DNA of 64,000 nucleotides from Agriterribacter sp. (lineage in GTDB: Bacteria > Bacteroidota > Bacteroidia > Chitinophagales > Chitinophagaceae): contig JBQCGX010000158.1 in assembly GCA_051955255.1 (NCBI GenBank), forward strand, positions 31,723 through 95,722, in the 5' to 3' direction. Of this stretch, positions 1,778-55,890 are shown one piece after another (position 1 is the stretch's first letter; every line of letters begins with the position of its first letter). Under the pieces are notes generated by a model. The model saw only the letters and a list, made by a program, of their open reading frames with translations, made no database searches and was not told the origin of the DNA. The position numbers and the translations under genes were made by a program.

Positions 1778-2602
1778 TCATAAATTGTAAAAATCAATGG
1801 CATTGCCACCAAATACCTTTTCTCTTTCTTCTTCAGGATAATTCTCCATGTACTTTTCCAACAGGCTTTTCCATTGCACGTACATGCCCGAAACCAGTAT
1901 TACCGGCCAGTCGCTGCCAAACATCAAACGGTCCGTTCCAAATGCTTCAAACACTACATCCAGGTAGGGATAAAAATCTCCCGCGCTCCATTCTTTCCAG
2001 GCTGCTTCGGTAAACAGCCCCGAAAGTTTGCAATAAATATTGGGTTGAGCCGCTATCTCTTTCATCAGCTTTGCCCATTCGGTTATTTCCTTGTCCTTTA
2101 TATCTGGTTTGGCGCAATGGTCAATTACCAGCTTTTGATCGGGGTACAGAGAAACAAATTTGAGCGCCGGCTTTAACTGATGGTGGTATATTAAAACATC
2201 GAAAGTATAATTGAACTGTTTTAAAGCAGCCACGCCCCGCTGAAAATCTTCCCGCAAAAAAAACTCCGGCGCTTCGGCCTGCAATATGTGCCGGTACCCT
2301 TTTATGATAGTGTGGGGCGCAAAATGCTGCAATCTTTCTTCCACGTCGGGCGCTTTAAGATCTACCCAGCCCACCACACCTTTGATAATAGGATGTGTAT
2401 TGGCCAGCTCCACCAAAAACCTGGTTTCCACTTCCGATTGATCTGCCTGCACGGCTACGCATCCGTCCACTCCATTACGCTTAAGCGTTGACGCTATTGT
2501 CTCGGGAACATAATCCTGCTGCAATACTTTCATGCCGTCCATCCAGGCATCGCGCTTGCGATCGTATTTCCAAAAGTGAACGTGAGTGTCTATAGTAGTC
2601 AT
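1778..2602 (-). CDS. Amidohydrolase-2 family protein, L-fuconolactonase-like
   Basis: ORF 1778-2638. The likely true start is the internal Met giving MTTIDTHVHFW, the canonical IDxHxHFW N-terminus of PF04909-type lactonases. It sits in the fucose cluster. Confidence 0.8.
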   Translation of the reverse strand: MTTIDTHVHFWKYDRKRDAWMDGMKVLQQDYVPETIASTLKRNGVDGCVAVQADQSEVETRFLVELANTHPIIKGVVGWVDLKAPDVEERLQHFAPHTIIKGYRHILQAEAPEFFLREDFQRGVAALKQFNYTFDVLIYHHQLKPALKFVSLYPDQKLVIDHCAKPDIKDKEITEWAKLMKEIAAQPNIYCKLSGLFTEAAWKEWSAGDFYPYLDVVFEAFGTDRLMFGSDWPVILVSGMYVQWKSLLEKYMENYPEEEREKVFGGNAIDFYNL

Positions 2603-2623
2603 AAGTGGTAAGTGATAAGTAGT
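2603..2623. repeat. Left arm of the inverted repeat flanking four-helix-bundle ORF 1
   Basis: AAGTGGTAAGTGATAAGTAGT. Its reverse complement ACTACTTATCACTTACCACTT matches the right arm at 3024-3049. Confidence 0.6.
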
Positions 2624-2630
2624 TGAATGT

Positions 2631-2999
2631 TTAAGCACTTAATTGTTTTTCAACTGAACGCGATAAACCTACAATAATTTTTGTTACCTGGCCGCAAAGA
2701 AGAACCAGTTCATTCATTTTTTCCTTGTTTATATACAGCAGGCGTTCCGCCAGATAACACATCGATTTCACTTCATTACAAGAATTTCTAGAAATGTTTA
2801 GAAATCGGATGAACTCCTTTTTACTTCTCGAATCGAAACCTTCAGCTATATTATTTGATACTGAAACAGCGGCGGAGCATATTTGGCCTTTAAAACTATA
2901 ATCGTTGATTTGTTTAAACGAACTATATATTTCTACCGCCAAATCCTGAGCTTTTTGCCAGGCTATCAAATCTTCAAATTTTATTACTGGGGCATTCAT
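2631..2999 (-). CDS. Four-helix-bundle protein (23S rRNA intervening-sequence protein family)
   Basis: ORF 2631-3041, with the probable start at MNAPVIKFEDLIAWQKAQDL. Family hallmarks are present: FEDLxxWQKA, AAVSVSNNIAEGF, RSKKEFIRFLNISRNS. By eye it is more AT-rich than its neighbours. Confidence 0.85.
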   Translation of the reverse strand: MNAPVIKFEDLIAWQKAQDLAVEIYSSFKQINDYSFKGQICSAAVSVSNNIAEGFDSRSKKEFIRFLNISRNSCNEVKSMCYLAERLLYINKEKMNELVLLCGQVTKIIVGLSRSVEKQLSA

Positions 3000-3023
3000 A
3001 TTAACAGTTAGCTTTCTTCCGTA

Positions 3024-3049
3024 CCACTTATCACATACCACTTACTACT
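3024..3049. repeat. Right arm of the inverted repeat flanking four-helix-bundle ORF 1
   Basis: CCACTTATCACATACCACTTACTACT. It overlaps the stop codon of the SGNH hydrolase gene. Confidence 0.6.
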
Positions 3050-8495: not shown

Positions 8496-8596
8496 AGCGG
8501 TCAGCCATCAGCATTCAGCTATCAGTGAGTGTTGTCTTGGCAACCAAAACCAAGAACTCCAAAACTTATCACCTATGACTTACCACCTGCCACTTA
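8496..8596. repeat. Low-complexity module pair (CAGCNATCAGC-type, then CCACTTATCAC-type) in a convergent intergenic region
   Basis: GGTCAGCCATCAGCATTCAGCTATCAG, then a small hairpin TCTTGGCAACCAAAACCAAGA, then TTATCACCTATGACTTACCACCTGCCACTT. The last part resembles the arm flanking four-helix-bundle ORF 1. Confidence 0.45.
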
Positions 8597-8614
8597 ATGA
8601 TAACTCAGAGCTCC

Positions 8615-13689: not shown

Positions 13690-14814
13690 ATGAGTAAAAA
13701 AGGCTTCGATAAATTCATCAATAAAGAAAGCGGCGCTAAAAAGAAAGAGCGTATCCGCCAGGAAAAGAAACAAATAAGAGCAGAAAAAAATGCCTACTTC
13801 GAGGAGCAAAAGCGTTTGAAGCGGGAGAGTAAAAAAGCGGCAGCCGGTGGTCAGCGAGCAGCAGTTAGCGGTCAGCAGTCAGCAGAAACCAGTAAACGAT
13901 CAGCAGTTGGTGGAGAACGGGTAATGGTCAACAAACAAAGAAAGGCGGTTAATAGTCAACGGCCAAATATCAGCAGCAATCAAAAATCAGCAATCAAAAA
14001 TCAGCAATCAGAAATCTCTACCAAATCTCAAATCTCAAATCCCAAATCAGAGATCTCCGAAATGCCGCTCAACAAATTTATTGCCTGGAGTGGCGTATGT
14101 GGCAGAAGAGAAGCGGCCGACCTGATAAAAGCCGGTAAAGTGTTAGTAAACGGACAGGTTATTACTGAACCGCCACACCGCGTTAGTCAGCAGGATAACA
14201 TTCGGGTGAATGGCAAAAAGATCGCGCTTCAGAAAAACCTGGTATATATTCTTTTAAACAAACCCAAAGACTACATTACAACCACCGACGATCCGGAGGG
14301 AAGAAAGACGGTAATGGACCTGATCAAACATGCTACCACTGAGCGTGTGTTTCCGGTGGGAAGGCTTGACAGGAATACTACTGGAGTAATGCTGCTCACC
14401 AACGACGGAGAACTGGCACAACGTCTTACCCATCCCAAATACGAAGTGAAGAAGATATATGAAGTGCGGGTAGACCAACCTGTTACTAAGCAGCAATTAG
14501 ATACGATTGCCACGGGTATAACATTAGAAGATGGATTCATTCAACCCGACGCAGTAGCTTATGCTGATACTAAAGACAAAAGTGTAATAGGCATAGAGAT
14601 ACATAGTGGCCGCAATCGCATTGTGCGACGCATTTTTGAGCATCTTGGTTTCAAAGTAAAAAATCTGGATCGTGTGATGTATGGCATTTTTACCAAAAAA
14701 AATGTAGACCGCGGTAAATGGCGTTTTCTTTCCGAAAAAGAAATACGCCTGCTTAAACATTTGAATACCTCATTTGCTAACAAAAAATCTCCGCAACAAG
14801 GTGCAAAAAAATAA
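13690..14814 (+). CDS. Pseudouridine synthase, RsuA/RluB family, with S4 domain and a long basic/low-complexity N-terminal extension
   Basis: It has an S4 domain (LNKFIAWSGVCGRREAADLIKAGKVLVNG) and the catalytic GRLDRNTTG. An alternative start at ATG 14062 (MPLNKF) would remove the 124-aa extension. Confidence 0.85.
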   Translation: MSKKGFDKFINKESGAKKKERIRQEKKQIRAEKNAYFEEQKRLKRESKKAAAGGQRAAVSGQQSAETSKRSAVGGERVMVNKQRKAVNSQRPNISSNQKSAIKNQQSEISTKSQISNPKSEISEMPLNKFIAWSGVCGRREAADLIKAGKVLVNGQVITEPPHRVSQQDNIRVNGKKIALQKNLVYILLNKPKDYITTTDDPEGRKTVMDLIKHATTERVFPVGRLDRNTTGVMLLTNDGELAQRLTHPKYEVKKIYEVRVDQPVTKQQLDTIATGITLEDGFIQPDAVAYADTKDKSVIGIEIHSGRNRIVRRIFEHLGFKVKNLDRVMYGIFTKKNVDRGKWRFLSEKEIRLLKHLNTSFANKKSPQQGAKK

Positions 14815-17002: not shown

Positions 17003-19333
17003 CTAGTCTTGCTCTACCGGAGTTTTCAGCATTTTTCTTGCCAGTTTAGCTGCCTGCACCATATTTATCATAGCAGCCTTTGTTTCCTCCCATTTCCGGG
17101 TCTTCAAACCACAATCGGGATTTACCCATAAATTTTTAACCGGAATATGAACCGCTGCTTTTTCCAGCAAAGCATACATTTCTTCAACTGAAGGTATCCG
17201 GGGCGAATGTATATCGTATACTCCCGGTCCTATTTCATTAGGGTACCTGAAATCAACAAAGGCGTTCAGCAACTCCATTTGAGACCTGCTGGTCTCGATG
17301 GTAATTACATCTGCATCCATTGCTGCAATGTGCGCCATAATATCATTGAACTCACTATAGCACATGTGCGTATGTATTTGCGTTTCATCTTTTACGCCAC
17401 TAGCCGAAATGCGAAATGCTTTCACTGCCCAGTCAAGATAATTTTCGCGGTCTGCCTTCCGAAGCGGCAATCCTTCGCGAATAGCCGGCTCATCAATCTG
17501 TATCATTTGTATACCGGCCTGTTCAAGCGCCACTACCTCATCACGTATGGCCAAGGCTATCTGGTTAGCAGTTTCAGAACGTGGCTGATCATCGCGCACA
17601 AACGACCACTGTAAAATAGTAACGGGGCCAGTGAGCATGCCTTTCATTATTTTTTTGGTGTTGGCTTGAGCAAAGGCACTCCACTGTACTGTCATATCCG
17701 CCGGGCGATATACATCTCCATAGATCACCGGCGGCTTCACACATCGGCTTCCATAACTCTGCACCCAGCCATTTTGAGTAAACAAAAATCCACTGAGTTG
17801 TTCCCCAAAGTATTCTACCATATCATTTCGTTCAAATTCGCCATGCACCAGCACATCCAGTCCTATTTCCTCCTGCCACCGTATCGCTTCCAGGGTAGCC
17901 TTTTCAATCGCTTTGTCATACTGCTGCGGGGTTAGCTCACCTTTTTTTAGCTTCGTTCTCAAACGCCTGATGTCGTCTGTTTGAGGAAAAGATCCGATGG
18001 AAGTGGTTGGAAAAACAGGAAGCTTAAATTTCAACCGCTGTATTTGCTGCCGTGTGCTAAATATGGATTGCCTGCGATCATCCTTTTCCGTTAGCGACTC
18101 TACTCGCTGTTTTACAGCGGAATGGTGAATGCGGGTTGACCGCTGCCTGCTTTCAATTGCCAGTTTATTGTTTTCCAGCAGCGATGTATCGCCGTCTGCA
18201 ATTTTATAGAGCTCTTCTACCTCATCCAATTTTTGTTTGGCAAAAGCCATCCAGTTTTTTATTTCAGCATCTATTCCTGTTTCAAACTCAAGGTCGAAAG
18301 GAGTATGTAACAAAGAACAGGAGGGCGCAATCATTACGCGATTGCTGCCGATGTGCGTAAGGGCTTTCTGTATATGTTGTAACGATTTTTGATAATCGTT
18401 CTTCCAGATGTTTCTACCGTCTATAACGCCCAACGACAGGCTCATTTTGGCAGAAAGCTTAGGTAATATTTCTTCCAATTGTTGTGGCGACCTTACAAGA
18501 TCTATATGCAGTGCGCATACAGGTAAACTGGTTGCTAGCGTTGCATTATCACGCAGCCCATCAAAGTAGGTAGCCAGCATAAGCTTTAACGTTGGGCATT
18601 TATCGCGAATAGTATTATAAGCGTATTCAAACGCCTTCTTTTCTTTTTCTGAAAGATCCATTGCTAAAAAAGGTTCATCCAGTTGCACCCATGCTGCCCC
18701 TTGTTCTTCCAGTTTTTTAAGTATTTGAACATATACGGGAACAAGCTTTTTAATGAGATCAATCCTGTGGAAATTACCTGCACTTGCCTCTTTCAGTTTT
18801 TCTTTGCCTAACAACAAGTAAGTAACCGGGCCAATCAATACCACTTTTGGCGGCTTGCTCAACACATGTTTTCCTGCACCAAATTCTTTAAAAACTTTAT
18901 CAGAAAAAATTTTGAACTCCTGGTCTTCTAAAAATTCGGGTACGATATAATGATAGTTTGTATCAAACCATTTGGTCATCTCCATAGCAGGAATATCCAA
19001 TCCGTTTTTTTGGTAACCCCTTGCCATAGCAAAATACAGATCAATTTCACTGTTATCTTTCACATCGGTTACTACCGGTGCATAGCGTTGGGGAATGGCG
19101 CCTAATAAAAGCGACATATCCAGCACCTGGTCGTACAGGCTGAAATCGTTACAGGGAATAAGATCTATTCCGGCATGAGCTTGTAACAGCCAGTTTTGTT
19201 CCTGAATTTTTTTGGCAGCCAGCCAAAGTTCCTGTTTTGAAATGTTGCCTGTCCAATATTGTTCGCAGGCTTTTTTAAGTTCACGTTTGGCACCCATTCG
19301 CGGGTAGCCGAGATTGTTTTTGAGCATACGCAT
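17003..19333 (-). CDS. metE: Cobalamin-independent methionine synthase (5-methyltetrahydropteroyltriglutamate-homocysteine methyltransferase)
   Basis: 776 aa with the two-domain MetE architecture. The N-terminus is LGYPRMGAKRELKKA, and the C-terminal zinc site region is HTHMCYSEFNDI...VNPDCGLKTR. Confidence 0.95.
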   Translation of the reverse strand: MRMLKNNLGYPRMGAKRELKKACEQYWTGNISKQELWLAAKKIQEQNWLLQAHAGIDLIPCNDFSLYDQVLDMSLLLGAIPQRYAPVVTDVKDNSEIDLYFAMARGYQKNGLDIPAMEMTKWFDTNYHYIVPEFLEDQEFKIFSDKVFKEFGAGKHVLSKPPKVVLIGPVTYLLLGKEKLKEASAGNFHRIDLIKKLVPVYVQILKKLEEQGAAWVQLDEPFLAMDLSEKEKKAFEYAYNTIRDKCPTLKLMLATYFDGLRDNATLATSLPVCALHIDLVRSPQQLEEILPKLSAKMSLSLGVIDGRNIWKNDYQKSLQHIQKALTHIGSNRVMIAPSCSLLHTPFDLEFETGIDAEIKNWMAFAKQKLDEVEELYKIADGDTSLLENNKLAIESRQRSTRIHHSAVKQRVESLTEKDDRRQSIFSTRQQIQRLKFKLPVFPTTSIGSFPQTDDIRRLRTKLKKGELTPQQYDKAIEKATLEAIRWQEEIGLDVLVHGEFERNDMVEYFGEQLSGFLFTQNGWVQSYGSRCVKPPVIYGDVYRPADMTVQWSAFAQANTKKIMKGMLTGPVTILQWSFVRDDQPRSETANQIALAIRDEVVALEQAGIQMIQIDEPAIREGLPLRKADRENYLDWAVKAFRISASGVKDETQIHTHMCYSEFNDIMAHIAAMDADVITIETSRSQMELLNAFVDFRYPNEIGPGVYDIHSPRIPSVEEMYALLEKAAVHIPVKNLWVNPDCGLKTRKWEETKAAMINMVQAAKLARKMLKTPVEQD

Positions 19334-19494: not shown

Positions 19495-19650
19495 TGCGAA
19501 AGCATTTGCCTTCATTTCCGGGTAAGTATCTGGCTCTCCTGCCGAAGCAGGATTACAGTTGCGCAACAGCTCATGATTTACACATGATTCCTTTTTACTA
19601 TCAGGTATTACCCTGCCAACCAGGAAACGATATAAGTAAAGAACGAAACG
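19495..19650 (-). promoter_or_regulatory. Cobalamin riboswitch in the metE leader
   Basis: Minus-strand reading is GGTTGGCAGGGTAATACCTGATAGTAAAAAGGAATCATGTGTAAATCATGAGCTGTTGCGCAACTGTAATCCTGCTTCGGCAGGAGAGCCAGATACTTACCCGG. It contains the GTGTAAATC hairpin, GCAACTGTAA, and a B12-box-like GAGCCAGATACTTACC. It is more divergent than the other two copies. Confidence 0.7.
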
Positions 19651-20019: not shown

Positions 20020-22398
20020 CTACGCGCTACAGGTAACGCAACCATCCTGCATACTGCAACTTGGGCCAGATATTTCATCTTCGTTTACAGCAACAGTGCT
20101 GTCCTTGCTCACCAGCGGCTCTACCATTTTACCGCCTTGTTTTTCAACGGTAAATTGCACAGCCTGCGTGGCAGCTTTGGTGCGCAGGTAATACATGCCT
20201 GTTTTCAACCCTTTTTTCCACGCATAAAAATGCATAGATGTCAACTTGCCGCTATTAGGACTGTCTACAAATAAATTGAGCGATTGAGACTGGCAAATAA
20301 ATGCACCGCGATCAGCCGCCATATCGATGATGGTTCTTTGTTTGATCTCCCAAACGGTTTTGTATATCTCTTTGATCTTGTCGGGTATGGCATCAATTTT
20401 CTGGATAGAACCATTTTGTGCAATTATTTTATTCTTCATGTCATCGCTCCACAGGTTCAGTTCAACCAGGTCTTTTAAAAGATGTTTGTTTACTACTACA
20501 AACTCTCCGCTTAATACCCGGCGTACATATATGTTAGATGTATACGGCTCAAAGCATTCGTTGTTGCCTAATATCTGCGAAGTAGAGGCAGTGGGCATAG
20601 GCGCCAGCAACAAAGAATTGCGCACACCGTGTTTTATCACTTCATCTTTTAAACGATACCAGTCCCAACGCAAAGAAGGTTCCACGCCCCACATATCAAA
20701 CTGGAAAATGCCTTTCGATACGGGAGAATCTTTAAACGTTTCGTAAGCACCATGCTGTTTAGCCAGGTCTTTGCTCGCCGTCATTGCAGCAAAGTAGATG
20801 GTTTCGAATATTTCGCTGTTCAGCTTTTTAGCCTCGTCACTTTCAAAAGGCAATCTCAACAAAATGAATACGTCTGCCAAACCTTGTACACCCAAACCAA
20901 TGGGGCGGTGGCGCAGGTTTGAATTTTTCGCTTCTTCTACCGGGTAATAATTGTAGTCGATGATCTTGTTAAGATTCTTTGTTACCTCGTAGGTAATTTC
21001 ATACAACTTTTCGTGATCGAATTGCCCGTTTGTTACAAAACGGGGCAACGCTAATGAAGCAAGATTACAAACTGCCACTTCATCGGGCGAAGTGTATTCC
21101 AGTATTTCGGTACAGAGATTCGAACTCTTGATGGTGCCCAGGTTTTGCTGGTTAGATTTGCGGTTGGCCGAATCCTTGTACAATAAGTAAGGCGTTCCTG
21201 TTTCAATCTGTGCATCCAGAATGGCAAACCAAAGATCCTGTGCTTTCACTGTTTTCCTTGCGCGGCCTTCCGCTTCGTATTGCGCATACAGTTTTTCAAA
21301 CTCTTCTCCCCAGCATTCGTGCAGGCCTGGTGCTTCGTGTGGACAAAACAAACTCCACTCTCCGTTGGCTTCCACGCGTTTCATGAACAGGTCGGGCACC
21401 CATAATGCATAAAACAAATCCCTGGCTCTCATTTCTTCCTTACCATGATTTTTACGCAGGTCTAAAAACTCAAACACATCGGCGTGCCAGGGTTCCAGGT
21501 AAATGGCAAAAGCTCCTTTTCGCTTACCCCCGCCCTGGTCTACATACCGGGCAGTATCGTTAAACACGCGCAACATAGGTATAATACCATTGCTTGTTCC
21601 GTTGGTACCGCCTATATAACTACCGGTAGCGCGTATACCATGAATAGAAAGCCCTATTCCGCCGGCGCTCTGCGAAATTTTTGCTGTTTGTTTTAATGTA
21701 TCGTAAATACCATCAATGCTGTCTTCTTTCATTGTCAGCAAAAAGCAGGAAGACATTTGTGGCTTAGGCGTGCCTGCATTAAACAACGTTGGCGTAGCAT
21801 GCGTAAACCAACGCTCACTCATCATATGATATGTTTTGATGGCGCTGTCGATATCATCTTTATGAATACCGATGGCAACGCGCATGTACATGTGCTGCGG
21901 GCGTTCTGCTATTTTGCCGTCTATTTTCAGCAGGTAAGATTTTTCCAGTGTTTTGAATCCGAAATAATCGAAGCTGTAATCGCGGTCGTAAATAATGGTT
22001 GAATCCAGCAGTTCTGCATTGTCGTGTATTACACGCCATACATCGTCTGCCAGCAACGGGGCGGACTTTCCTGTTTTGGAATCTTTGCATTTATGCAACA
22101 GTTGCATAGTGTGCGAAAAACTCTTGGTAGTATTTTTATGCAAATTGCTCACCGCAATACGGCTTGCCAGCAATGCATAATCCGGATGTTTTACAGTAAG
22201 AGAAGCAGCCGTTTCTGCTGCAAGATTGTCCAATTCTGTTGTAGTAACGCCATCATACAATCCTTCAATTACTTTTTTAGCTACGTCGATGGAATTTACA
22301 AACCGCCTGTCTAACCCGTAACTCAGTTTTTCAATACGGGCAGTTATCTTATCAAATTTTACGGATTCCTTTTTTCCGTTTCGTTTAATTACCTGCAT
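20020..22398 (-). CDS. nrdA: Ribonucleoside-diphosphate reductase, alpha subunit (class Ia)
   Basis: 792 aa with an ATP-cone N-terminus ([16 protein letters not shown]), the catalytic region SNLCTEI, and a C-terminal CxxC tail (GCVTCSA). Confidence 0.95.
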
Positions 22399-22411
22399 GA
22401 TGTGATGTTTT

Positions 22412-22439
22412 GTGAAAGGTGAAAAGTGAAAGATGAAGG
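22412..22439. repeat. Left arm of the inverted repeat flanking four-helix-bundle ORF 2
   Basis: GTGAAAGGTGAAAAGTGAAAGATGAAGG. Its reverse complement CCTTCATCTTTCACTTTTCACCTTTCAC matches 22860-22890. Confidence 0.7.
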
Positions 22440-22453
22440 CGGTAACCGTTCAC

Positions 22454-22810
22454 TTACTTGGCACCAGTCATTTTAGTTAATAATGCAAAGGCTGAGTTGA
22501 TTAGAGTTCCCATCTCTGCTAATTCTGATTCGTTTAAATATTTCAAGTCAACAATTGTTTCTGCTGCAGCATCTAATTCTATAACAGAGCCTCGGCTAAT
22601 CTCCCAAAAACGCTTTCTCTCTATTTCAGACTTCCGGGAAGAGCCTTCAGCTATGTTCAGTTTGACCGATAGTGCAGCTCTGCGAATCTGTTGAACAAGA
22701 TTGAATTTTTCATCAGGCGGCAGCTTTAGTGTAACCAGGTGACAAACTTTTGTTAACTGTCTCGCCACTTCGTACACCTGCAACTTTTTATGATTCAGGT
22801 TCAAAAACAT
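22454..22810 (-). CDS. Four-helix-bundle protein (23S rRNA intervening-sequence protein family)
   Basis: 118 aa with QIRRAALSVKLNIAEGSSRKS, ERKRFWEISRGSVIELD. It lies in the nrdB-nrdA spacer. Confidence 0.85.
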   Translation of the reverse strand: MFLNLNHKKLQVYEVARQLTKVCHLVTLKLPPDEKFNLVQQIRRAALSVKLNIAEGSSRKSEIERKRFWEISRGSVIELDAAAETIVDLKYLNESELAEMGTLINSAFALLTKMTGAK

Positions 22811-22859
22811 AGGTTAATAGGTTAGTATTTTAAATATTATAGATAGAACTGTAGTTGAA

Positions 22860-22890
22860 CATCTTTCACCTCTCACCTTTTCCCTTTCAC
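22860..22890. repeat. Right arm of the inverted repeat flanking four-helix-bundle ORF 2
   Basis: CATCTTTCACCTCTCACCTTTTCCCTTTCAC, ending 2 nt before the nrdB stop codon. Confidence 0.7.
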
Positions 22891-22892
22891 CG

Positions 22893-23861
22893 TTAGAAGT
22901 CTTCTTCCAAACTAAACGCCTGTGCTTCTTTGTTACCAGAAATCACGCCCGACTTCTGATAGTCGCCCACACGCTTTTCAAAAAAGTTGGTTTTGCCTTC
23001 GAGTGAGATCATTTCCATAAAATCAAATGGATTGGTGGCATTGAACATTTTAGGATACCCTAGTTCACTCAACCACCTGTCTGCTACAAACTCAATATAC
23101 TGCTGCATGAGTTTGGCATTCATACCAATAAGAGCAACAGGTAATGCTTCGGTAATGAATTCTTTTTCGATCTCTACTGCATTGCCAATAATGCTATACA
23201 CCTGCTCTTGCGATAGTTTATTGCTCAACATGCTGTATAACAGGCATGCAAACTCGCAATGCAACCCTTCATCGCGACTGATCAGTTCGTTGCTGAAGGT
23301 AAGCCCCGGCATCAAGCCACGTTTCTTCAGCCAGAAGATGGAACAAAAACTTCCGCTGAAGAAAATTCCTTCTACGGCTGCGAAGGCTACCAGGCGTTCT
23401 GCAAAATTTCCGTTCTCTATCCAACGCAATGCCCATTCCGCTTTTCGCTTTACAGCGGGTACTGTTTCTATTGCATGAAACAATCTATCTTTCTCTACAG
23501 GATCTTTGATGTAGGTATCTATGAGCAGCGCGTATGTTTCTGAGTGAATGTTTTCCATCATAATCTGGAAACCATAAAAGCATCTTGCTTCGGGCAATTG
23601 CACCTCGCTCATGAAGTTCACTGCCAGGTTCTCATTTACAATTCCATCGCTGGCTGCAAAAAATGCCAATACATGCGAAATGAAATGGCGTTCACCGTCG
23701 TTCATATTTGCCCAATGCTGCAAATCGCCGCTAAGGTCAATTTCTTCTGCCGTCCAGAAACTGGCTTCATGTTTTTTATACATTTCCCACACTTTGGGAT
23801 AATTGATGGGCAGAATAACAAACCGGTCTTTGTTTTCTTTTAACAATACTTCTGTTTCCAT
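22893..23861 (-). CDS. nrdB: Ribonucleoside-diphosphate reductase, beta subunit (class Ia)
   Basis: The track ORF starts at TTG (23915), so the ATG at 23861 ([12 protein letters not shown]) is preferred. The di-iron/tyrosyl motifs are [19 protein letters not shown] and EGIFFSGSF, with a C-terminal acidic tail EEDF. Confidence 0.95.
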
Positions 23862-23994
23862 GTACAAATGCTTTTTAGATGAACAAAAAAAATAAAACAT
23901 GGCTAACGAAGACAAGGCGAGACGACACGTTTACATATAGAGATAACAATGCCTGACCCACCTTTGCTTTTCCTCCGAAAGCAAATAGTGATCA

Positions 23995-24185
23995 ATCCAC
24001 ACTGGCAGGTCTTCTGGCTTAATTTTTACTGAATACCTTCCCGCCCCTTCTCAATTACACATCCGGGACAGTGGTAGAAGATCCAGCAAGCGGGCGACGG
24101 GGTTTAACACCAGTCACTCACAAGTTTCTTACAGCTACGGGGATAGCACCGGATTTACACCGGTTTCCCTTTTAATCCCTACAAA
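23995..24185 (-). promoter_or_regulatory. Cobalamin riboswitch in the nrdB-nrdA leader
   Basis: Minus-strand reading is ATTAAAAGGGAAACCGGTGTAAATCCGGTGCTATCCCCGTAGCTGTAAG ... GGGAAGGTATTCAGT ... TAAGCCAGAAGACCTGCCAGTG, ending in the B12 box. Confidence 0.85.
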
Positions 24186-24263
24186 TATTTTTGTAATAGA
24201 ACCAGAGTGGACATCAAATATAGAAATCATCTCCGCCGCAAAAAGAAAGACTTATCAACAGGT

Positions 24264-31214: not shown

Positions 31215-31369
31215 TTTAACAATTTTAAAGGTGGCAAAGATATTAATAAGGTGTAAGGTAAAAGGTGTAAGGCGAAAGTTTATCGCTTTTGTAAGTAAAC
31301 AGGCAGCCCGCCGGGCAATAATCATCGGCGAAAGCCAATAAATCTCTACCTTGGCAATTTGCTAGAAAT

Positions 31370-31924
31370 ATGACGTCATTGAAAAAAATAGTCATTATCG
31401 GTCCTGAGTCAACCGGAAAAAGTACCCTATGCGAACAGTTGGCCCAACATTATCAAACCATCTGGTGCCGCGAGTATGCACGGGAGTATTTATTACAACA
31501 CGGTACCAATTATAGTTTTGATGACCTGCTGACCATTGCAAAGGGGCAGCTTGCGCTGGAAGAAAGCACCAGCAGAACAGCCATTAAAAATGGCCATCCT
31601 TTGCTGTTTATAGACACAGATATGTATGTGATGAAAGTTTGGTGCGAATTTGTTTTTGAGAAGTGCCACAACTGGATACTGGAGCAGGTGGTAAAGCAAC
31701 AATACGATCTTTACCTGTTGTGCAATACGGACCTTCCCTGGGTAAAAGATGAGTTGAGAGAATACCCCGATCTTGTTTCGCGCCAAAAGCTTTACAATAT
31801 CTATAAAGACATTATGATCAACCAGTCTACTCCGTGGGTTGATATCAGCGGCGATTATCAGCAAAGATTTGAAATTGCAAAGCAGGCGGCCGATCAGCTT
31901 TCAGCGATCAGCCATCAGCTATGA
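31370..31924 (+). CDS. NadR-type ribosylnicotinamide-kinase-like P-loop ATPase
   Basis: 184 aa with IIGPESTGKSTL, REYAREYL, FIDTD and the DLPWVKDELR pattern, as in the NadR C-terminal domain. The last ~11 codons run into a low-complexity repeat. Confidence 0.7.
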   Translation: MTSLKKIVIIGPESTGKSTLCEQLAQHYQTIWCREYAREYLLQHGTNYSFDDLLTIAKGQLALEESTSRTAIKNGHPLLFIDTDMYVMKVWCEFVFEKCHNWILEQVVKQQYDLYLLCNTDLPWVKDELREYPDLVSRQKLYNIYKDIMINQSTPWVDISGDYQQRFEIAKQAADQLSAISHQL

Positions 31925-32012
31925 GCCATCAGCTATTCAGTTCCTTCCCTTCCACCTTATACCCTACTCCTTCTACCTTACACCCTATACCTTCCACCCT
32001 ACACCTCATTCC
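31892..32012. repeat. Low-complexity module pair: CAGC-periodic block followed by a CCTTATACCCTAC-type pyrimidine-rich block
   Basis: GATCAGCTTTCAGCGATCAGCCATCAGCTATGAGCCATCAGCTATTCAG followed by TTCCTTCCCTTCCACCTTATACCCTACTCCTTCTACCTTACACCCTATACCTTCCACCCTACACCTC. Reverse-complement-related blocks occur at 62181-62337. Confidence 0.6.
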
Positions 32013-32054
32013 TTTTTTGTTTTTTCCATTTGCTACCACCATCTTTGCAGCGTA

Positions 32055-32265
32055 TTTGGTTGACGCCACGGCGTCATTAAAAGGGAAGTCCGGTGCAAAT
32101 CCGGCGCTATCCCCGTAGCTGTAAGGTGGTGAATGTGTGAGCAGTAACATTGCAATGCTCATCTTCACTTTACTGAATCTTCGTACCACTGTCGCGCTTT
32201 GGCGCGACGGGAAGGTGTTCAGTCATCACTAAGCCAGAAGACCTGCCATAATACGGTTATTTATC
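32055..32265 (+). promoter_or_regulatory. Cobalamin riboswitch in the btuB-like receptor leader
   Basis: ATTAAAAGGGAAGTCCGGTGCAAATCCGGCGCTATCCCCGTAGCTGTAAGG ... GGGAAGGTGTTCAGT ... TAAGCCAGAAGACCTGCCATAA. The core is almost identical to that of the nrd copy. Confidence 0.85.
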
Positions 32266-32377
32266 AAGAGGCTTTCGGGTGAAAGGCCGGAGATGAAAAT
32301 GCCTCGTGCACAGGTATCTTAATTTCCCGCTCACTCTATTGCTTATTTTCTACTTTAAACATCCTTCGGGACAAAAA

Positions 32378-34264
32378 ATGAACATCAGAAATTTCGCATG
32401 TGCAACCGTGCTATCATTGTTTAGTAGCGCAGCAATAGCGCAGGAAGACACTGCCAGAACTACCTCTTTAAATGAAATTGTAATTACTGCTACAAGATTT
32501 CCCAAAAAAGTAAGTGAAACGGGGAAAGTAGTGAATGTGATAGGGAAAAAAGACATAGAACATAGCGCAGGAAAAGACCTGGCACAAGTGCTGAACGAGC
32601 AGGCTGGTCTTCTTATCAACAGCGCTTACAGCAATCCCGGGAAAGACAAAAGTATTTTTTTAAGAGGTGCAAAAGCCGACTACACCGTTATACTCATCAA
32701 TGGCGTACCCGTTAGCGATCCATCCGGTGCAGGCGGCGCTTTCGATATCAGGCTGTTCCCTGTTGACCAGATAGAAAGAATAGAAATACTGAAAGGCGCG
32801 CAGTCTACATTGTATGGTTCAGATGCCATTGCGGGAATCATAAACATTATTACCAAAAAGAGTGCAGATAAACCAGCCAACGTATATGGAGGATTGTCGC
32901 TGGGCAGCTTCAGCACATTAAAAGCAAATGCCGGCATTAGTGGCTCGGCCGAGGGTGCATCGTATAACATTGGATTTACGCATTTCAAAACAAATGGCTT
33001 TTCAGAAGCAGAAGATACCACAAGCGCCAAAAGTTTTGATAAAGACGGGTTTACACAAAATGCATTCAACAGCGATTTTGATGTACGTGTTGCAAAGGGG
33101 CTGCACATCAAACCGTATTTCCGCTACTCTTATTTTAAGGGAGATTACGATGGTGGCTCTTTTACAGATGGCGATGGCAAGTATACAGCACAACTGCTTA
33201 CGACCGGTTCGCAGGCGCAGTACAGTTTTTCAAAGGGATCGGTTACTGCTTTTTATGATTACGATGAAATAAACCGGCGTTTTTCAGATGCTTACGGGGT
33301 ATATCCGTATGCGGGCACAAAGCATACACTGGAAGCATACGGCAATTATTCTATCGGGAATCATATCCAGTTGCTGGGAGGCATCCATTATAACAAACAA
33401 AAAATGAACGACACCACCGCTTCTCCTAAAAATCCAACAGCGGAGCTCACCAGCCCCTATCTGGCTTTCTTCCTGCGCAACCTGGGCGGATTTAATCTTG
33501 AATTGGGAGGACGTTACAACAAGCATTCCAAATACGGCGAGAATTTTACGTACAGCATCAACCCTTCCTACACGATCAGCAAAACCGTAAAAATATTTGC
33601 GAATTATGCAACGGCTTTCAAAGCACCGTCGCTTACCTCTCTGTATGGCATGTATGGTTCCAATCCGGATCTTAAGCCAGAAGAATCATCCACACTTGAA
33701 GGTGGCATACAGGCAAGCCTTGGCAAACTGCTGGACATAAGGGCAGTTTATTTTACAAGAGAAATTGAAAATGTAATTATATATGGCCCCAATTATCAGC
33801 AGGTCAATCTTGACAGACAAAAAGATCATGGCTTTGAAATTGAGCCAACGCTGTATATTAATAAAGCCCTCACCGTTAAATTGTTTTATGCTTATGTAGA
33901 TGGAGAAGTGACCACACAGAATAACGGCAAAGATTCCACTTACGCTAACCTCATACGTCGCCCTAAGCATAGTTTTGGCGCCAACATTGGCTACCAGGTT
34001 ACGCCGCAATTTTTTGTAAGCACGCAAATAAGCAATTACTCAAAACGAGGTGATCTTTTTTACGACATGAACACTTTTTCGCAACGGCCGGTTACCCTCG
34101 CCGCTTATACCTTGTGGAATGCGTATGCTGAATATGCATTTATTGGTAACCGCATTAAGCTATTCGCCGATGTGAAAAACATTACCAATAGCAGGTTTAC
34201 TGAAATATACGGCTATAGCAGCATGCGCTTTAATATAACAGGAGGGCTTCGTCTGTCGCTTTAA
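32378..34264 (+). CDS. btuB: TonB-dependent outer-membrane receptor, vitamin B12 transporter-like
   Basis: The track ORF starts at GTG 32306, so the ATG at 32378 (MNIRNFACATVLSLFSSAAIAQ, signal peptide) is preferred. It has a TonB box/plug (EIVITATR, IERIEILKGAQSTLYGSDAIAGIINI) and a C-terminal barrel ending in an aromatic region. It lies directly downstream of a cobalamin riboswitch. Confidence 0.85.
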   Translation: MNIRNFACATVLSLFSSAAIAQEDTARTTSLNEIVITATRFPKKVSETGKVVNVIGKKDIEHSAGKDLAQVLNEQAGLLINSAYSNPGKDKSIFLRGAKADYTVILINGVPVSDPSGAGGAFDIRLFPVDQIERIEILKGAQSTLYGSDAIAGIINIITKKSADKPANVYGGLSLGSFSTLKANAGISGSAEGASYNIGFTHFKTNGFSEAEDTTSAKSFDKDGFTQNAFNSDFDVRVAKGLHIKPYFRYSYFKGDYDGGSFTDGDGKYTAQLLTTGSQAQYSFSKGSVTAFYDYDEINRRFSDAYGVYPYAGTKHTLEAYGNYSIGNHIQLLGGIHYNKQKMNDTTASPKNPTAELTSPYLAFFLRNLGGFNLELGGRYNKHSKYGENFTYSINPSYTISKTVKIFANYATAFKAPSLTSLYGMYGSNPDLKPEESSTLEGGIQASLGKLLDIRAVYFTREIENVIIYGPNYQQVNLDRQKDHGFEIEPTLYINKALTVKLFYAYVDGEVTTQNNGKDSTYANLIRRPKHSFGANIGYQVTPQFFVSTQISNYSKRGDLFYDMNTFSQRPVTLAAYTLWNAYAEYAFIGNRIKLFADVKNITNSRFTEIYGYSSMRFNITGGLRLSL

Positions 34265-43557: not shown

Positions 43558-45039
43558 ATGAAAAAGATACTCTTCATAATATTAATCACTGCATTTTTTG
43601 CATGCAGCAAAAAGCTGGAAAAATTTCCGCAAGGCCAGCTAACGGAAAACAACGTATTCACCATGGCGAGTGATTTTATGCTTGCCATAGATGCCGCTTA
43701 TGAGCCACTCACCCATCGCTGGCGTGGTAGTTGGGATTGGGATTTGGGCGCTTCTATATCGCGCGATTGGGTAATTGGCGACGATATGAGTGACGATGCG
43801 GTAAAGGGTGGCGGTGGCCTGGGCGACCAGGAGGATATGCGGCGCATGGAAACATTTGCTGTTTTTGCTACCAATAACAACGTGCTGGGTATATGGCGTT
43901 ATAACTACAAGGGTATTAATGCTGCCAATATTATTTTGCAGCAGGATGGCAGTAAAGCACCCGATCTTGACCCTGCAACTTTTAACCGGATAAAAGGAGA
44001 AGCATATTTCCTGAGGGCCTTTTATTATTTCAGGCTGGTAGTAAATTTTGGCGATGTGCCGTTGTTGATTCCGGAAAAGGGTTTGACAGACAATACTAAA
44101 AAAGCAACTGCCGCCGAAGTATATGCGCAGATAGAAGAAGACCTGCAACAGGCTAAGAGCCTGCCTGCATCGTATCCGGCCAGCGACTATCACCGGGCCA
44201 CCAGCGGTGCGGTGCATGCCTTACTGGCAAAAACATTTTTATACCGTGGGCAATGGCAAAAATGCCTCGATGAAATTACCGAAACAGAAAAAAGCGGTTA
44301 CGCATTATTGCCCAATTATGCCGACAACTTTAATGGCGTTGGCGAACAGGGCAAAGAGATCATTTTTGCTGCACGTCACGATGCAGGTAAAGTTCCCTCG
44401 CAGGGCTCTATCCTCAATGCCGTATTTGCACCACGGGGTATAGGCTGGGGTTTTAATTTGCCTACGCAAGACCTGGTAGACGAATATGAAACCGGTGATC
44501 CGAGACTGGGTGCTACTATTTTTAAAGGAGGAGATACTTATTTCAACGGGGCGCCTTTCGATGCTTCCACTTCTATAACCGGCTATGCTGTAAAAAAATT
44601 CCTGGGCAATTTTAACCCGGTTGACGACGGTGGTATTGACTATGTATACATCCGGTATGCGGATGTGCTGTTGTGGAAGGCAGAATGTTATGCGCAGCTC
44701 AATAATGCTGACGATGCCAAAACAGCGCTGGAACTGGTAAGGGCAAGAGCAAGGGGAGGAAACAATGCGATTTTACCGGCGGTAACCACCTCAGACAAAG
44801 ACGATCTGTTAGCAGCCATCCGCCACGAAAGAAGAGTGGAGCTGGCGTTTGAGGGTCAGCGTTATTATGACCTCGTGCGCTGGAACATCGCAGCAACAGT
44901 GCTTGCTAAATCTCCCGATGCAGATCCCTTAACGGGCTATAAGGATTACGGAGATGGCTGGCAAACCCGCAATGCGTTGCTGCCTGTACCGCAACGCGAG
45001 GTTGACCTGCTGGGGCTTGGGCAAAACAATGGCTATTAA
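43558..45039 (+). CDS. SusD/RagB-family nutrient-binding lipoprotein
   Basis: 493 aa with a lipobox (FFAC), TPR-like helices, and RAFYYFRLVVNFGDVPL. The C-terminal ERRVELAFEGQRYYDLVRW is a SusD hallmark. Confidence 0.9.
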   Translation: MKKILFIILITAFFACSKKLEKFPQGQLTENNVFTMASDFMLAIDAAYEPLTHRWRGSWDWDLGASISRDWVIGDDMSDDAVKGGGGLGDQEDMRRMETFAVFATNNNVLGIWRYNYKGINAANIILQQDGSKAPDLDPATFNRIKGEAYFLRAFYYFRLVVNFGDVPLLIPEKGLTDNTKKATAAEVYAQIEEDLQQAKSLPASYPASDYHRATSGAVHALLAKTFLYRGQWQKCLDEITETEKSGYALLPNYADNFNGVGEQGKEIIFAARHDAGKVPSQGSILNAVFAPRGIGWGFNLPTQDLVDEYETGDPRLGATIFKGGDTYFNGAPFDASTSITGYAVKKFLGNFNPVDDGGIDYVYIRYADVLLWKAECYAQLNNADDAKTALELVRARARGGNNAILPAVTTSDKDDLLAAIRHERRVELAFEGQRYYDLVRWNIAATVLAKSPDADPLTGYKDYGDGWQTRNALLPVPQREVDLLGLGQNNGY

Positions 45040-45046
45040 ATTTGGT

Positions 45047-45099
45047 GAGCCGCAGACGCGCAGATTGAATACTGTTTTTAACCTGCGAACCTGCGGCTA
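45047..45099. repeat. REP-like palindrome, family GCAGATTCGCAGAT (copy 3)
   Basis: AGCCGCAGACGCGCAGATT-gaatactgttttta-AACCTGCGAACCTGCGGCT, immediately after the SusD stop. Confidence 0.6.
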
Positions 45100-45115
45100 T
45101 TTAAAACACTTACAC

Positions 45116-46243
45116 ATGCGATATTCAAAATCTATCATTTCCCTTGCGTTCATCCTTGCTAACTACATCGGGTATACGCAACAAAAACCCTGGATGCTGG
45201 GTCCGTTTGTAAAACAAGACAAAGTGAATCCCGTATTGAAGCCTAAACAAACACGCTTCTTCGATCCGGTGCTTCAAAAGCAGGTTGGCTGGGAAGCGCA
45301 GGATGTATACAATCCTGCAGCACTTGTTAAAGATGGGAAAATTTACCTGCTCTACCGTGCTGAGGATACCGTGAAAAAATACGCCGGCACTTCGCGTATT
45401 GGACTGGCACATAGCAAAGACGGACTAACATTCACTACTGAAAAGCACCCGGTGCTATATCCAGATAACGACCATATGCTATCGTGGGAAGCTGAAGGCG
45501 GCGTGGAAGATCCGCGGGTGGTGCGCGATGAAAATGGCACTTACTATATGACCTATACCGCATACGATGGCACTACTGCGAGGTTGTGCATCGCTTCTTC
45601 AAAAGACCTGAGGAAATGGCAAAAACACGGATCGGTATTTAAGAAAGCCGAAAACGGCAAGTATAACAACTACTGGACAAAAGCAGGCTCTATTGTATGC
45701 GCTGTAAAGAATGGCGAATTGATAGCCACCAAAATAAATGGCAAATACTGGATGTATTGGGGCGAATCGAATATATATGCAGCCGTTTCAGAAAACCTCG
45801 TTGACTGGACACCGTTACCGGAAACGGATCCGGCTAAAAAACAATATGATTCACTTCGCAAATACGAAGCTTTCAAAATTATATTTGGCCCTCGCAGGGG
45901 GAAATTCGATAGCGAGCTGGTTGAGCCGGGTCCACCGGCTGTGCTTACAGATGACGGAATTGTTTTTATATACAACAGCAAAAACAGTCCTTCGTTCGGC
46001 GATAAAACTCTGGCAGATGGCACCTATGCCGCCGGGCAAATATTGCTGGACAAAAATGACCCACTGGTGGTGAAAGATCGGTGCGATAATTATTTTATTA
46101 AGCCAGACAAGCCTTATGAAATTACAGGGCAGGTAAATAATGTTTGCTTCCTGGAAGGATTGGTGCCATTCAACGGGCGCTGGTATTTGTACTATGGAAC
46201 AGCAGATTCTAAGATAGCGGTAGCCGTTAGTGAAGCCAAGTGA
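45116..46243 (+). CDS. Glycoside hydrolase family 130-like protein (beta-mannoside hydrolase/phosphorylase fold), secreted
   Basis: The track ORF starts at 44954 and overlaps SusD, so the probable start is MRYSKSIISLAFIL (signal peptide). GH130-type motifs are DVYNPAALVKDGKIYLLYRAED, GVEDPRVV and YYMTYTAYDG. Confidence 0.8.
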   Translation: MRYSKSIISLAFILANYIGYTQQKPWMLGPFVKQDKVNPVLKPKQTRFFDPVLQKQVGWEAQDVYNPAALVKDGKIYLLYRAEDTVKKYAGTSRIGLAHSKDGLTFTTEKHPVLYPDNDHMLSWEAEGGVEDPRVVRDENGTYYMTYTAYDGTTARLCIASSKDLRKWQKHGSVFKKAENGKYNNYWTKAGSIVCAVKNGELIATKINGKYWMYWGESNIYAAVSENLVDWTPLPETDPAKKQYDSLRKYEAFKIIFGPRRGKFDSELVEPGPPAVLTDDGIVFIYNSKNSPSFGDKTLADGTYAAGQILLDKNDPLVVKDRCDNYFIKPDKPYEITGQVNNVCFLEGLVPFNGRWYLYYGTADSKIAVAVSEAK

Positions 46244-46325
46244 AAGGTGAAAGGTCAAAGGTCAAAGGTCAAAGGTGAGAGGTGAGAGGTGAAAGATCTT
46301 TGATCTTTCACTTTTCACCTTTGGC
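46240..46325. repeat. Payload-free hairpin built from 8-nt periodic GGTGAAAG-type units
   Basis: GTGAAAGGTGAAAGGTCAAAGGTCAAAGGTCAAAGGTGAGAGGTGAGAGGTGAAAGATC-ttt-GATCTTTCACTTTTCACCTTTGG. The arm motif is the same as that of the nrd four-helix-bundle cassette. It begins on the GH130 stop codon. Confidence 0.75.
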
Positions 46326-46373
46326 CACCTAATGGCCTGAATATTGATGCATTTTCGTATAAACCTTCCTGTT

Positions 46374-55656: not shown

Positions 55657-55751
55657 ATTCTGGTAAAGTTTGCCTGACCAAAACTTGTATTGGCTTTGGT
55701 TCAGAGGTTATGACTATAGCACCAAAAATAAAGAAAATATCATTTGTTGCT

Positions 55752-55853
55752 ATGAGCCTTCAGCGATGAAGTTGGGAGTTTGTGGTTTGGTGTTTGCAGT
55801 TTGACGTTGAAATAAACCACAAACCCCAAACCAACCAATCGCTGAAGGCTCAT
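55752..55853. repeat. Long hairpin with a perfect 16-bp outer stem and GT-rich/AC-rich simple-sequence inner arms
   Basis: The outer stem is ATGAGCCTTCAGCGAT ... ATCGCTGAAGGCTCAT. The inner arms are GTTGGGAGTTTGTGGTTTGGTGTTTG versus AAACCACAAACCCCAAACCAACC. It is followed by a GCTGA-periodic tract (55854-55885). Confidence 0.7.
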
Positions 55854-55890
55854 CGCTGACCGCTGATTGCTGATCGCTAAAGCTGCCAGC

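Follow-up and report, generated by a model that had tools for sequence, protein, structure and literature searches.

Background

[quoted passage not shown] Three tandem GACAGAT heptamers, variable in number, lie upstream of the Coxiella ORF and cleavage takes place at the first repeat, and the ORF itself seems to be untranslated and decaying (PMC4990558). According to PMC4990558, which cites Lin et al. 2006, four-helix bundles assemble into a homopentamer in the Xanthomonas campestris protein XCC0516 (structure 2GSC). In the 5' untranslated region (UTR) of Haemophilus influenzae hmw1A, RNase III processes a hairpin with an (ATCTTTC)n heptamer arm (PMC12721329). Intergenic heptamer simple-sequence repeats (SSRs) have been described as GGGAATC arrays in Xanthomonas, with about 70 convergent inverted pairs, as GGGGAYT in Nostoc, and as TAACTGA in Beggiatoaceae, cyanobacteria and Bacteroidetes (PMC4692102, PMC4679880). 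In this study we analysed 64,000 nt of Agriterribacter sp. DNA from contig JBQCGX010000158.1, which as a whole is called the window below, and we describe in it a PF05635 ORF that lies between nrdB and nrdA and is clamped by inverted heptamer arrays. We are highly confident of its architecture and class assignment and give processing of its stem by RNase III, which is argued by analogy, an even chance; because both were weighed, the overall reading, that the nrd element is a cassette of the IVS type that resides in an mRNA operon, is one that we favour with some reserve.

A clamped PF05635 ORF between nrdB and nrdA

The features of the locus, in the order of the transcript, are as follows.

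23987 to 24221, minus strand: cobalamin riboswitch 5' of nrdB, presumed control of the host transcript (RF00174, 92.1 bits, E 1.5e-21)
22893 to 23861, minus strand: nrdB, small subunit of ribonucleotide reductase, upstream host cistron (PF00268, E 5.6e-119; a 322-aa gene in L001)
22865 to 22890, minus strand: 5' arm in the transcript, purine-rich heptamer array GGTGAAAGGGAAAAGGTGAGAGGTGA, one half of the inverted repeat, beginning 2 nt past the nrdB stop
22811 to 22864, minus strand: A/T-rich leader from the 5' arm to the ORF start, the most variable part in the strain alignment
22454 to 22810, minus strand: four-helix-bundle ORF of 118 aa, assigned by its profile matches to PF05635 and TIGR02436
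22412 to 22437, minus strand: 3' arm in the transcript, pyrimidine-rich array UUCAUCUUUCACUUUUCACCUUUCAC, other half of the inverted repeat, finishing 13 nt short of the nrdA ATG
20020 to 22398, minus strand: nrdA, large subunit of ribonucleotide reductase, downstream host cistron (PF02867, PF00317, PF03477)

An earlier note, made from the sequence alone, had read this spacer as an IVS-like cassette, with a four-helix-bundle ORF between mirror-image flanks in an operon under a cobalamin riboswitch, and the analysis bears out each of these features. The DNA comes from a metagenome-assembled genome, and an identical protein (100%) is listed by NCBI for Agriterribacter sp. as the counterpart of the ORF product. 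The nrdB-nrdA spacer (22399-22892, 494 bp) is filled by the cassette. The ORF, which is co-oriented with nrdB and nrdA, matches PF05635 with an E value of 5.7e-27 and 94.5 bits (cut-off 33.8) over profile positions 1-105 of 106, and TIGR02436 with an E value of 1e-22 and 80.4 bits (cut-off 24); no other ORF lies in the cassette. Its closest solved structure is that of X. campestris XCC0516 (PDB 2GSC, E 2.3e-14), and by this homology the cassette protein is probably a homopentameric, nucleic-acid-associated bundle. The ORF had also been judged by eye to be richer in A+T than its neighbours, and indeed its GC content is 39.8% compared to 43.9% in nrdA and 42.5% in nrdB; at third codon positions it is 37.8% compared to 46-47% in these two genes.

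The arms are inverted arrays of GTGAAAG-like heptamers, 26 nt long and 81% complementary, and since both are heptamer arrays several pairing registers are available, of which alternative ones also pair (21 nt, 90%). When the whole spacer was folded as the minus strand, the arms were paired in the minimum free energy structure and in the centroid structure. The predicted stem has 8 and 16 bp separated by a 2x2 internal loop, so that the long-range stem enclosing the ORF that the note had proposed stands, at 24 bp and not at the length of about 28 bp given there. Folded alone with a short linker, the arms gave -32.7 kcal/mol compared to -15.4 +/- 2.9 for shuffled sequences (z -5.96), and none of 200 shuffles was as good. 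It is also true that the purine-rich arm is 5' of the ORF, but this is uninformative, because an inverted repeat with a purine-rich and a pyrimidine-rich arm reads alike on both strands and is therefore silent on the orientation of the ORF. Over the window the heptamer motif has 20 near-matches where 0.6 were expected, an enrichment. When the window was aligned with its strain variants (L001, L002, L003), the arms were invariant, the leader had an 8-nt indel and the ORF had 6 synonymous and no non-synonymous differences. A change in heptamer copy number was considered as the cause of a 7-nt length difference between strains and was rejected, as the difference is made up of the 8-nt leader indel plus 1 nt.

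Sigma-70 and terminator scans of 22399-22892 found no promoter-like or terminator-like site within the cassette, and the Bacteroidetes TAnnTTTG motif was not found in it either. Nor does the stem have the form of an intrinsic terminator, that is a short G+C-rich hairpin with a U-tract, since what comes after the 3' arm is AAAACAUCACAUC. An Rfam scan of the window returned three cobalamin riboswitches only and no rRNA, and the arms match no Rfam family; the cassette is thus located at nrdB|nrdA and not in a 23S rRNA helix.

Recurrence of the design in other operons

The statistics below cover 75 cassettes, namely 67 metagenome loci (alignment A2) together with individually found cases, and the control was 620 other genes of the same loci; complementarity was measured as a local score on 120-nt flanks. 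The median flank complementarity was 33 in the cassettes and 15 in the other genes, and scores of 24 or higher were reached by 85% of the cassettes (64/75) and by 2.3% of the other genes. The pairing is specific to the partner, as an arm scored 32.3 against its own partner compared to 20.6 against arms at other junctions. Both flanks also had a lag-7 autocorrelation peak (0.40 and 0.46 compared to a baseline of 0.29). RNAduplex energies on the 120-nt flanks (observed -49, shuffled -37, mismatched partners -40) were dropped as uninformative because long flanks always pair somewhere and arms of the same subfamily cross-pair. The downstream gene shared its strand with the cassette ORF in 72/75 cases and the upstream gene in 64/66. 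The median distances were 2 nt from the upstream stop to the 5' arm, 46 nt from the 5' arm to the ATG of the ORF, 10.5 nt from the ORF stop to the 3' arm and 9.5 nt from the 3' arm to the next ATG, with a full span of about 471 nt. The 20 nt immediately ahead of the ATG were 75% A+T and 8% G, and the Bacteroidetes -7 motif TAnnTTTG was present in only one of the 75 leaders. The median dN/dS of the family was 0.125 in 41 same-junction pairs, a ratio by which the cassette ORF is under purifying selection. Mismatches within the arms were, on the sense strand, more often G.U/U.G than A.C/C.A (77 and 47, respectively, p 0.009), and this excess favours selection on the sense transcript, although its size is modest and strand-biased C-to-T mutation or the non-independence of the loci could have raised it.

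The sites occupied by the cassettes, named by the downstream gene, include hemL (8), hemJ (7), hemB (4), hemE (1) and hemF (1) as well as a GHMP-kinase-like gene (10), recQ (9), nrdA (6) and a resistance-nodulation-division (RND) efflux gene (4); these names were given by eye from N-terminal sequences, except for nrdA and for the genes annotated in L007 and L125. Junctions of heme biosynthesis genes are strikingly frequent. In one heme operon (L007), a homologue 67% identical to the window ORF is clamped in hemB|hemL, and the same operon holds a second, distant PF05635 cassette in hemF|hemB, which is clamped as well. Orthologues at nrdB|nrdA (L005, L006, L088, L094) were found in A. humi (L005, 70% identity), in another metagenome-assembled genome of Agriterribacter (76%) and on two contigs from metagenomes (76-77%), L006 and L088 being Agriterribacter-like contigs. 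Their arm sequences have diverged and the folding is retained (z -3.2 to -5.7). The orthologues thus carry the ORF together with arms. Where all other cassettes have ATG, the A. humi orthologue starts with ATA (L005 6001-6003), which may be read as an unusual start codon or as an early sign of decay. The window itself has a second cassette of the same design.

2595 to 3049, minus strand: second cassette, consisting of an ORF at 2631-2999 and its arms (arms-only z -8.0)

Its ORF (122 aa, minus strand) belongs to a distant PF05635 subfamily, with 26% identity to the nrd ORF and a TIGR02436 E value of 1.8e-29. The arms, at 3023-3049 and 2595-2624, are made of AGTGGTA/AGTGATA heptamers and overlap the stop codon of the upstream gene (3047-3045) as well as the start codon (2602-2600) of the downstream amidohydrolase-like gene.

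The design extends to a second phylum. The X. campestris homologue of XCC0516 is located in accB|accC (L180 2920-3380) and not in an rRNA gene, and it has GGGAATC-type arms, which form four 6-bp helices with a mismatch at each seventh base (z -7.5). Repeats of this type were reported across Xanthomonas genomes in a paper of 2015, as G-quadruplex repeats. Two proteins present on multiple contigs, P0174 and P0197, were considered as rRNA-borne copies and were rejected, as they proved to be operon cassettes in lutA|lutB and M23|AhpC. Exceptions to the rule of a purine-rich arm upstream and a pyrimidine-rich arm downstream are L127, L126 and L134, in which the arms are reversed or weak. Two further observations concern Flavobacterium: F. 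columnare has a gmk|four-helix-bundle|nadD arrangement that is annotated as a phage region, and for a PF05635-family member of F. psychrophilum transcription is detectable.

Descent of the cassettes

A genome scan with NrdB gave 80 loci from other species, of which 78 include the nrdB-nrdA junction. In 76 of these 78 the spacer (17-346 nt) is without a PF05635 ORF, so that the ORF is not a phylum-wide resident of this junction, and the only two with a cassette are Mucilaginibacter genomes. The Mucilaginibacter nrd cassettes are 48-52% identical to the window ORF, which is below the mean of 57% for cassettes at different junctions. Two gains, one in Agriterribacter and one in Mucilaginibacter, are a more parsimonious account than one ancient gain followed by dozens of losses, although this is not proven; on this account the cassette was inserted in the Agriterribacter lineage, was probably gained separately in the Mucilaginibacter lineage and has been inherited vertically since. 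No decayed PF05635 remnants were found in the ORF-less nrdB-nrdA spacers (best E 0.04 over 14 aa). Across the family, the nearest protein neighbour was at the same junction in 43/59 cases compared to 7.8% expected, and from this clustering it follows that the cassettes are long-lived residents that have persisted vertically, with gain being rare. Across different junctions the similarity of the arms rises with protein identity (rho 0.34, reached by none of 300 permutations); for example, the second cassette of the window and a Parapedobacter cassette at another junction (L174) share AGTGGTA/AGTGATA arms. This tracking of the protein by the arm type means that arms and ORF behave as one unit.

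These data bear on the possibility that the cassette is a mobile element at the level of DNA, in which the arms would be the terminal inverted repeats of a non-autonomous unit like a miniature inverted-repeat transposable element (MITE), the ORF a passenger and the RNA stem incidental. The patchy distribution, with 76 of 78 related spacers empty, speaks for it, as do the presence of one subfamily at no fewer than 25 different junctions, the travelling of the arm type with the protein subfamily over junctions and genera, and the occurrence of ORF-less hairpins as near-identical dispersed copies (L122, see below). However, the cassette encodes no transposase or recombinase, although an enzyme encoded elsewhere might act in trans; the arm tips show no target-site duplication, and the arms are simple repeats of variable length and not defined termini. 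Moreover, neither the near-strict co-orientation nor the sense-strand G.U bias is predicted by a purely DNA-level element, and the clustering of the proteins by junction shows that movement is rare. We therefore regard a mobile element as unlikely to be the whole account, and it is compatible with the explanation as an IVS-type cassette and does not exclude it.

Heptamer arrays without a PF05635 ORF

Heptamer arrays are not confined to the cassettes. Among the ORF-less nrdB-nrdA spacers, 16 of the 76 contain 29 period-7 arrays, which is 3.6 per kb compared to 0.18 per kb overall, and those of L019, L074, L075 and L061 form very stable hairpins. One ORF-less hairpin in the window is built from the heptamer type of the nrd arms.

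46240 to 46329, plus strand: ORF-less hairpin of eight GTGAAAG/GTCAAAG/GTGAGAG heptamers and their complement, right after the stop of ORF 44954-46243

This hairpin (-42.3 kcal/mol, z -6.6) is the outside array most similar to the nrd arms (0.81). In L122, near-identical ORF-less hairpins of AAGTCCG/AAAGTCG units stand at 100-200 and 600-700 on both sides of tsaE, and these two copies mean that ORF-less heptamer hairpins occur as dispersed repeats. Arrays outside cassettes resemble the cassette arms of the same locus slightly more than foreign arms (0.37 compared to 0.31, p 3e-4).

It could be argued from these arrays that the stem is a host regulatory hairpin, an intercistronic RNA element like the repetitive extragenic palindromic (REP) sequences that serves in mRNA stabilisation, processing or attenuation, and that the ORF happened to land in its loop. 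The arrays in the 16 ORF-less spacers, the strong ORF-less hairpins in these and at 46240 and 55750 of the window, the likeness of outside arrays to arms of the same locus and the approximately 70 convergent GGGAATC pairs of Xanthomonas (PMC4692102) would all fit such a hairpin. Against it is that the spacers of the relatives with the highest nrdB identity (L009, L013, L010, L008; 20-51 nt) are empty of any array or predicted hairpin, which speaks for arms that came with the cassette. The arm type, too, follows the ORF subfamily and not the junction, and 85% of PF05635 ORFs are clamped compared to 2.3% of other genes. Finally, no PF05635 relics were found in the ORF-less spacers, so that the ORF-less hairpins are not obviously the same thing as the cassette stems. 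A host hairpin with a chance resident is for these reasons doubtful as an explanation of the nrd cassette.

Interpretation of the nrd cassette

The reading that the nrd element is an IVS-type cassette is drawn from Coxiella, because the IVS there combines a protein of this family with tandem heptamers and with a stem that RNase III cleaves; protein family, geometry, better-than-chance pairing, recurrence in 75 cassettes and in a second phylum, and this likeness to Coxiella all support what the earlier note had proposed. A likely course of events is that the ORF would be transcribed, as the layout suggests, within a nrdB-ORF-nrdA RNA under control of the B12 riboswitch. In this RNA the two arrays would pair, as they do in silico, into the 24-bp stem whose base is 2 nt past the nrdB stop and 13 nt ahead of the nrdA start, and the ORF would be looped out. 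By analogy with the Coxiella IVS and the hmw hairpin, RNase III may then cut the stem, which would release the mRNA of the ORF and uncouple the nrdB and nrdA messages, and in this way the cassette may affect the expression of nrdB and nrdA. Arms built as repeat arrays could pair in several registers and would tolerate the gain or loss of units.

Several points weigh against this reading. The comparison of the fold with shuffled controls had been set beforehand as a check; the arms alone pass it clearly, but the full 494-nt spacer barely beats its shuffles (z -1.84). RNase III cleavage of cassettes borne on mRNA is argued from precedent. The analogy is incomplete in that the Coxiella ORF seems to be untranslated and decaying whereas the nrd ORF is intact and under purifying selection. 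Heptamer arrays and hairpins occur without the ORF, in 16 of the 76 empty spacers, at 46240 and 55750 of the window and in L122, so the stem may be a general feature of the host or its genome and not a part of the cassette. The G.U bias is, as noted, a modest one. Compensatory change between the arms could not be shown position by position. A mirrored order of heptamer variants in the two arms (p 1e-9) was discarded as a selection bias from arms defined by alignment, and with independently defined arrays the mirrored order was not significant (p 0.28, n 24). Covariation can accordingly be claimed at the level of the heptamer type of each cassette and not of single base pairs. As for chance complementarity of two unrelated low-complexity tracts, for which the simple sequence of the arms and the whole-spacer z score might be cited, it can be dismissed, since none of 200 shuffles matched the arms-only fold and recurrence statistics refute it, the design being present in 64 of 75 independent cassettes from two phyla.

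In REP/REPIN systems with their REP-associated tyrosine transposases (RAYTs), a gene lies between inverted copies of a short repeat and the same repeat also forms many ORF-less intergenic hairpins; the RAYT is a tyrosine transposase of the IS200/IS605 type. It is conceivable, if improbable, that PF05635 proteins and heptamer arrays are genome-wide partners in a similar manner, and that each subfamily would act on a hairpin type of its own by binding, protecting or propagating it, with the clamped gene as the master and the ORF-less hairpins as satellites. The tracking of the subfamily by the arm type gives this partial support, as does the fact that the Xanthomonas arms are of the GGGAATC type of that genome; the likeness of the outside arrays is modest. 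Were it true, the long-noted surplus of heptamer simple repeats between bacterial genes would be explained, and the rRNA IVSs would be just one particular place where a general element has landed.

As far as could be found, the cassettes form a widespread and apparently undescribed class, in which inverted heptamer arrays would loop an IVS-type PF05635 gene out of the transcript of its operon; full-text literature searches turned up no paper that connects inverted heptamer arrays with PF05635 genes of mRNA operons. The S23p/PF05635 stem-loop, for 30 years an oddity of 23S rRNA, thus seems to be a cassette of a general kind, placed between the cistrons of protein-coding operons in two or more phyla, with hosts that include nrdBA, heme genes, accBC, lutAB and recQ. 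This gives a genomic context to PF05635, a family with a solved structure (2GSC) and with Avd, the accessory protein of diversity-generating retroelements, among its members, and it connects the family with the heptamer simple repeats whose surplus in the intergenic DNA of bacteria is unexplained. The accB|accC cassette of Xanthomonas and the nrdB|nrdA cassette of A. humi, which is in culture, are tractable systems in which the part of RNase III-cut repeat stems in operon expression can be studied.

Other arrays, clamped genes and riboswitches

Intergenic arrays of other types are present in the window at 55750-55880 and 8501-8600 (a GTTTGTG/AAACCAC hairpin, GCTGATC, TCAGCAA and CTTACCA), from which it appears that the source genome has several unrelated heptamer families. 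GTCAGCA, AATCAGC/AATCAAA and CAAATCT arrays at 13850-14050 lie within the low-complexity N-terminal part of ORF 13690-14814 and are apparently translated. Inverted arrays of the GGTGTAA/GGTAAAA type (31247-31278 and 31937-32010, z -5.6) clamp a 184-aa NadR-like AAA_28 ORF at 31370-31924, so that a gene outside PF05635 is bracketed in the same manner, with a cobalamin riboswitch just downstream. In three Pedobacter genomes (L034 1780-2300; L027 1135-1527; L030 1893-2285) a 130-aa ORF of the PDDEXK_3 family (PF13366) lies in a 26-nt inverted repeat (GCCRCGGAAACAC.GAA..CACGGAA), and this may be a second family of small proteins that uses the same stem-loop design; a profile search for more PDDEXK_3 cassettes returned only these three orthologous copies. 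The three cobalamin riboswitches of the window are at 19504-19639, 23987-24221 and 32040-32265. The first of them precedes a 776-aa ORF (17003-19333) that by eye is like cobalamin-independent methionine synthase, and the last precedes ORF 32306-34264, a TonB-dependent receptor gene as called in L001.

Comparison with known systems

The REP/RAYT systems differ from the nrd cassette in having a fixed palindrome and a transposase, whereas the cassette has tandem heptamers and a small bundle without a known catalytic site; a transposase of the IS200/IS605 type is not what the nrd ORF encodes, as it matches PF05635 only. The Avd accessory protein of diversity-generating retroelements is homologous in its four-helix-bundle fold and in its family (PMC10053308). 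Such a retroelement is not present at the nrd locus, where no reverse transcriptase and no template or variable repeat adjoins the ORF and the neighbours are nrdB and nrdA.

The intergenic heptamer SSRs are like the cassette arms in their period of 7 and in their position just 3' of genes, often amid co-oriented genes. In the papers that describe them, the arrays are read as G-quadruplexes or translational regulators, without a link to PF05635 (PMC4692102, PMC4679880). The hmw1A hairpin resembles the nrd stem in that a transcribed heptamer array makes up one arm and its partner is purine-rich (PMC12721329), but it encloses no ORF, sits in a 5'-UTR and serves phase variation.

The closest likeness is to the ORF-bearing 23S IVSs of Coxiella and Leptospira, which have, as the nrd cassette does, a PF05635 ORF in the sense orientation in the loop of an inverted-repeat stem. 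They differ in their host, which is helix 45 of the 23S rRNA for the IVS and the spacer of a protein-coding operon for the nrd cassette, and in that excision by RNase III has been demonstrated for the Coxiella IVS and is proposed by analogy for the cassette. The Coxiella IVS also shares with the nrd cassette the tandem purine-rich heptamers in its 5' part and an element length of about 430-470 nt (PMC4990558). Lastly, the IVSs are distributed patchily, having been acquired horizontally and then inherited vertically (PMC4990558), and the same holds for the nrd cassette.

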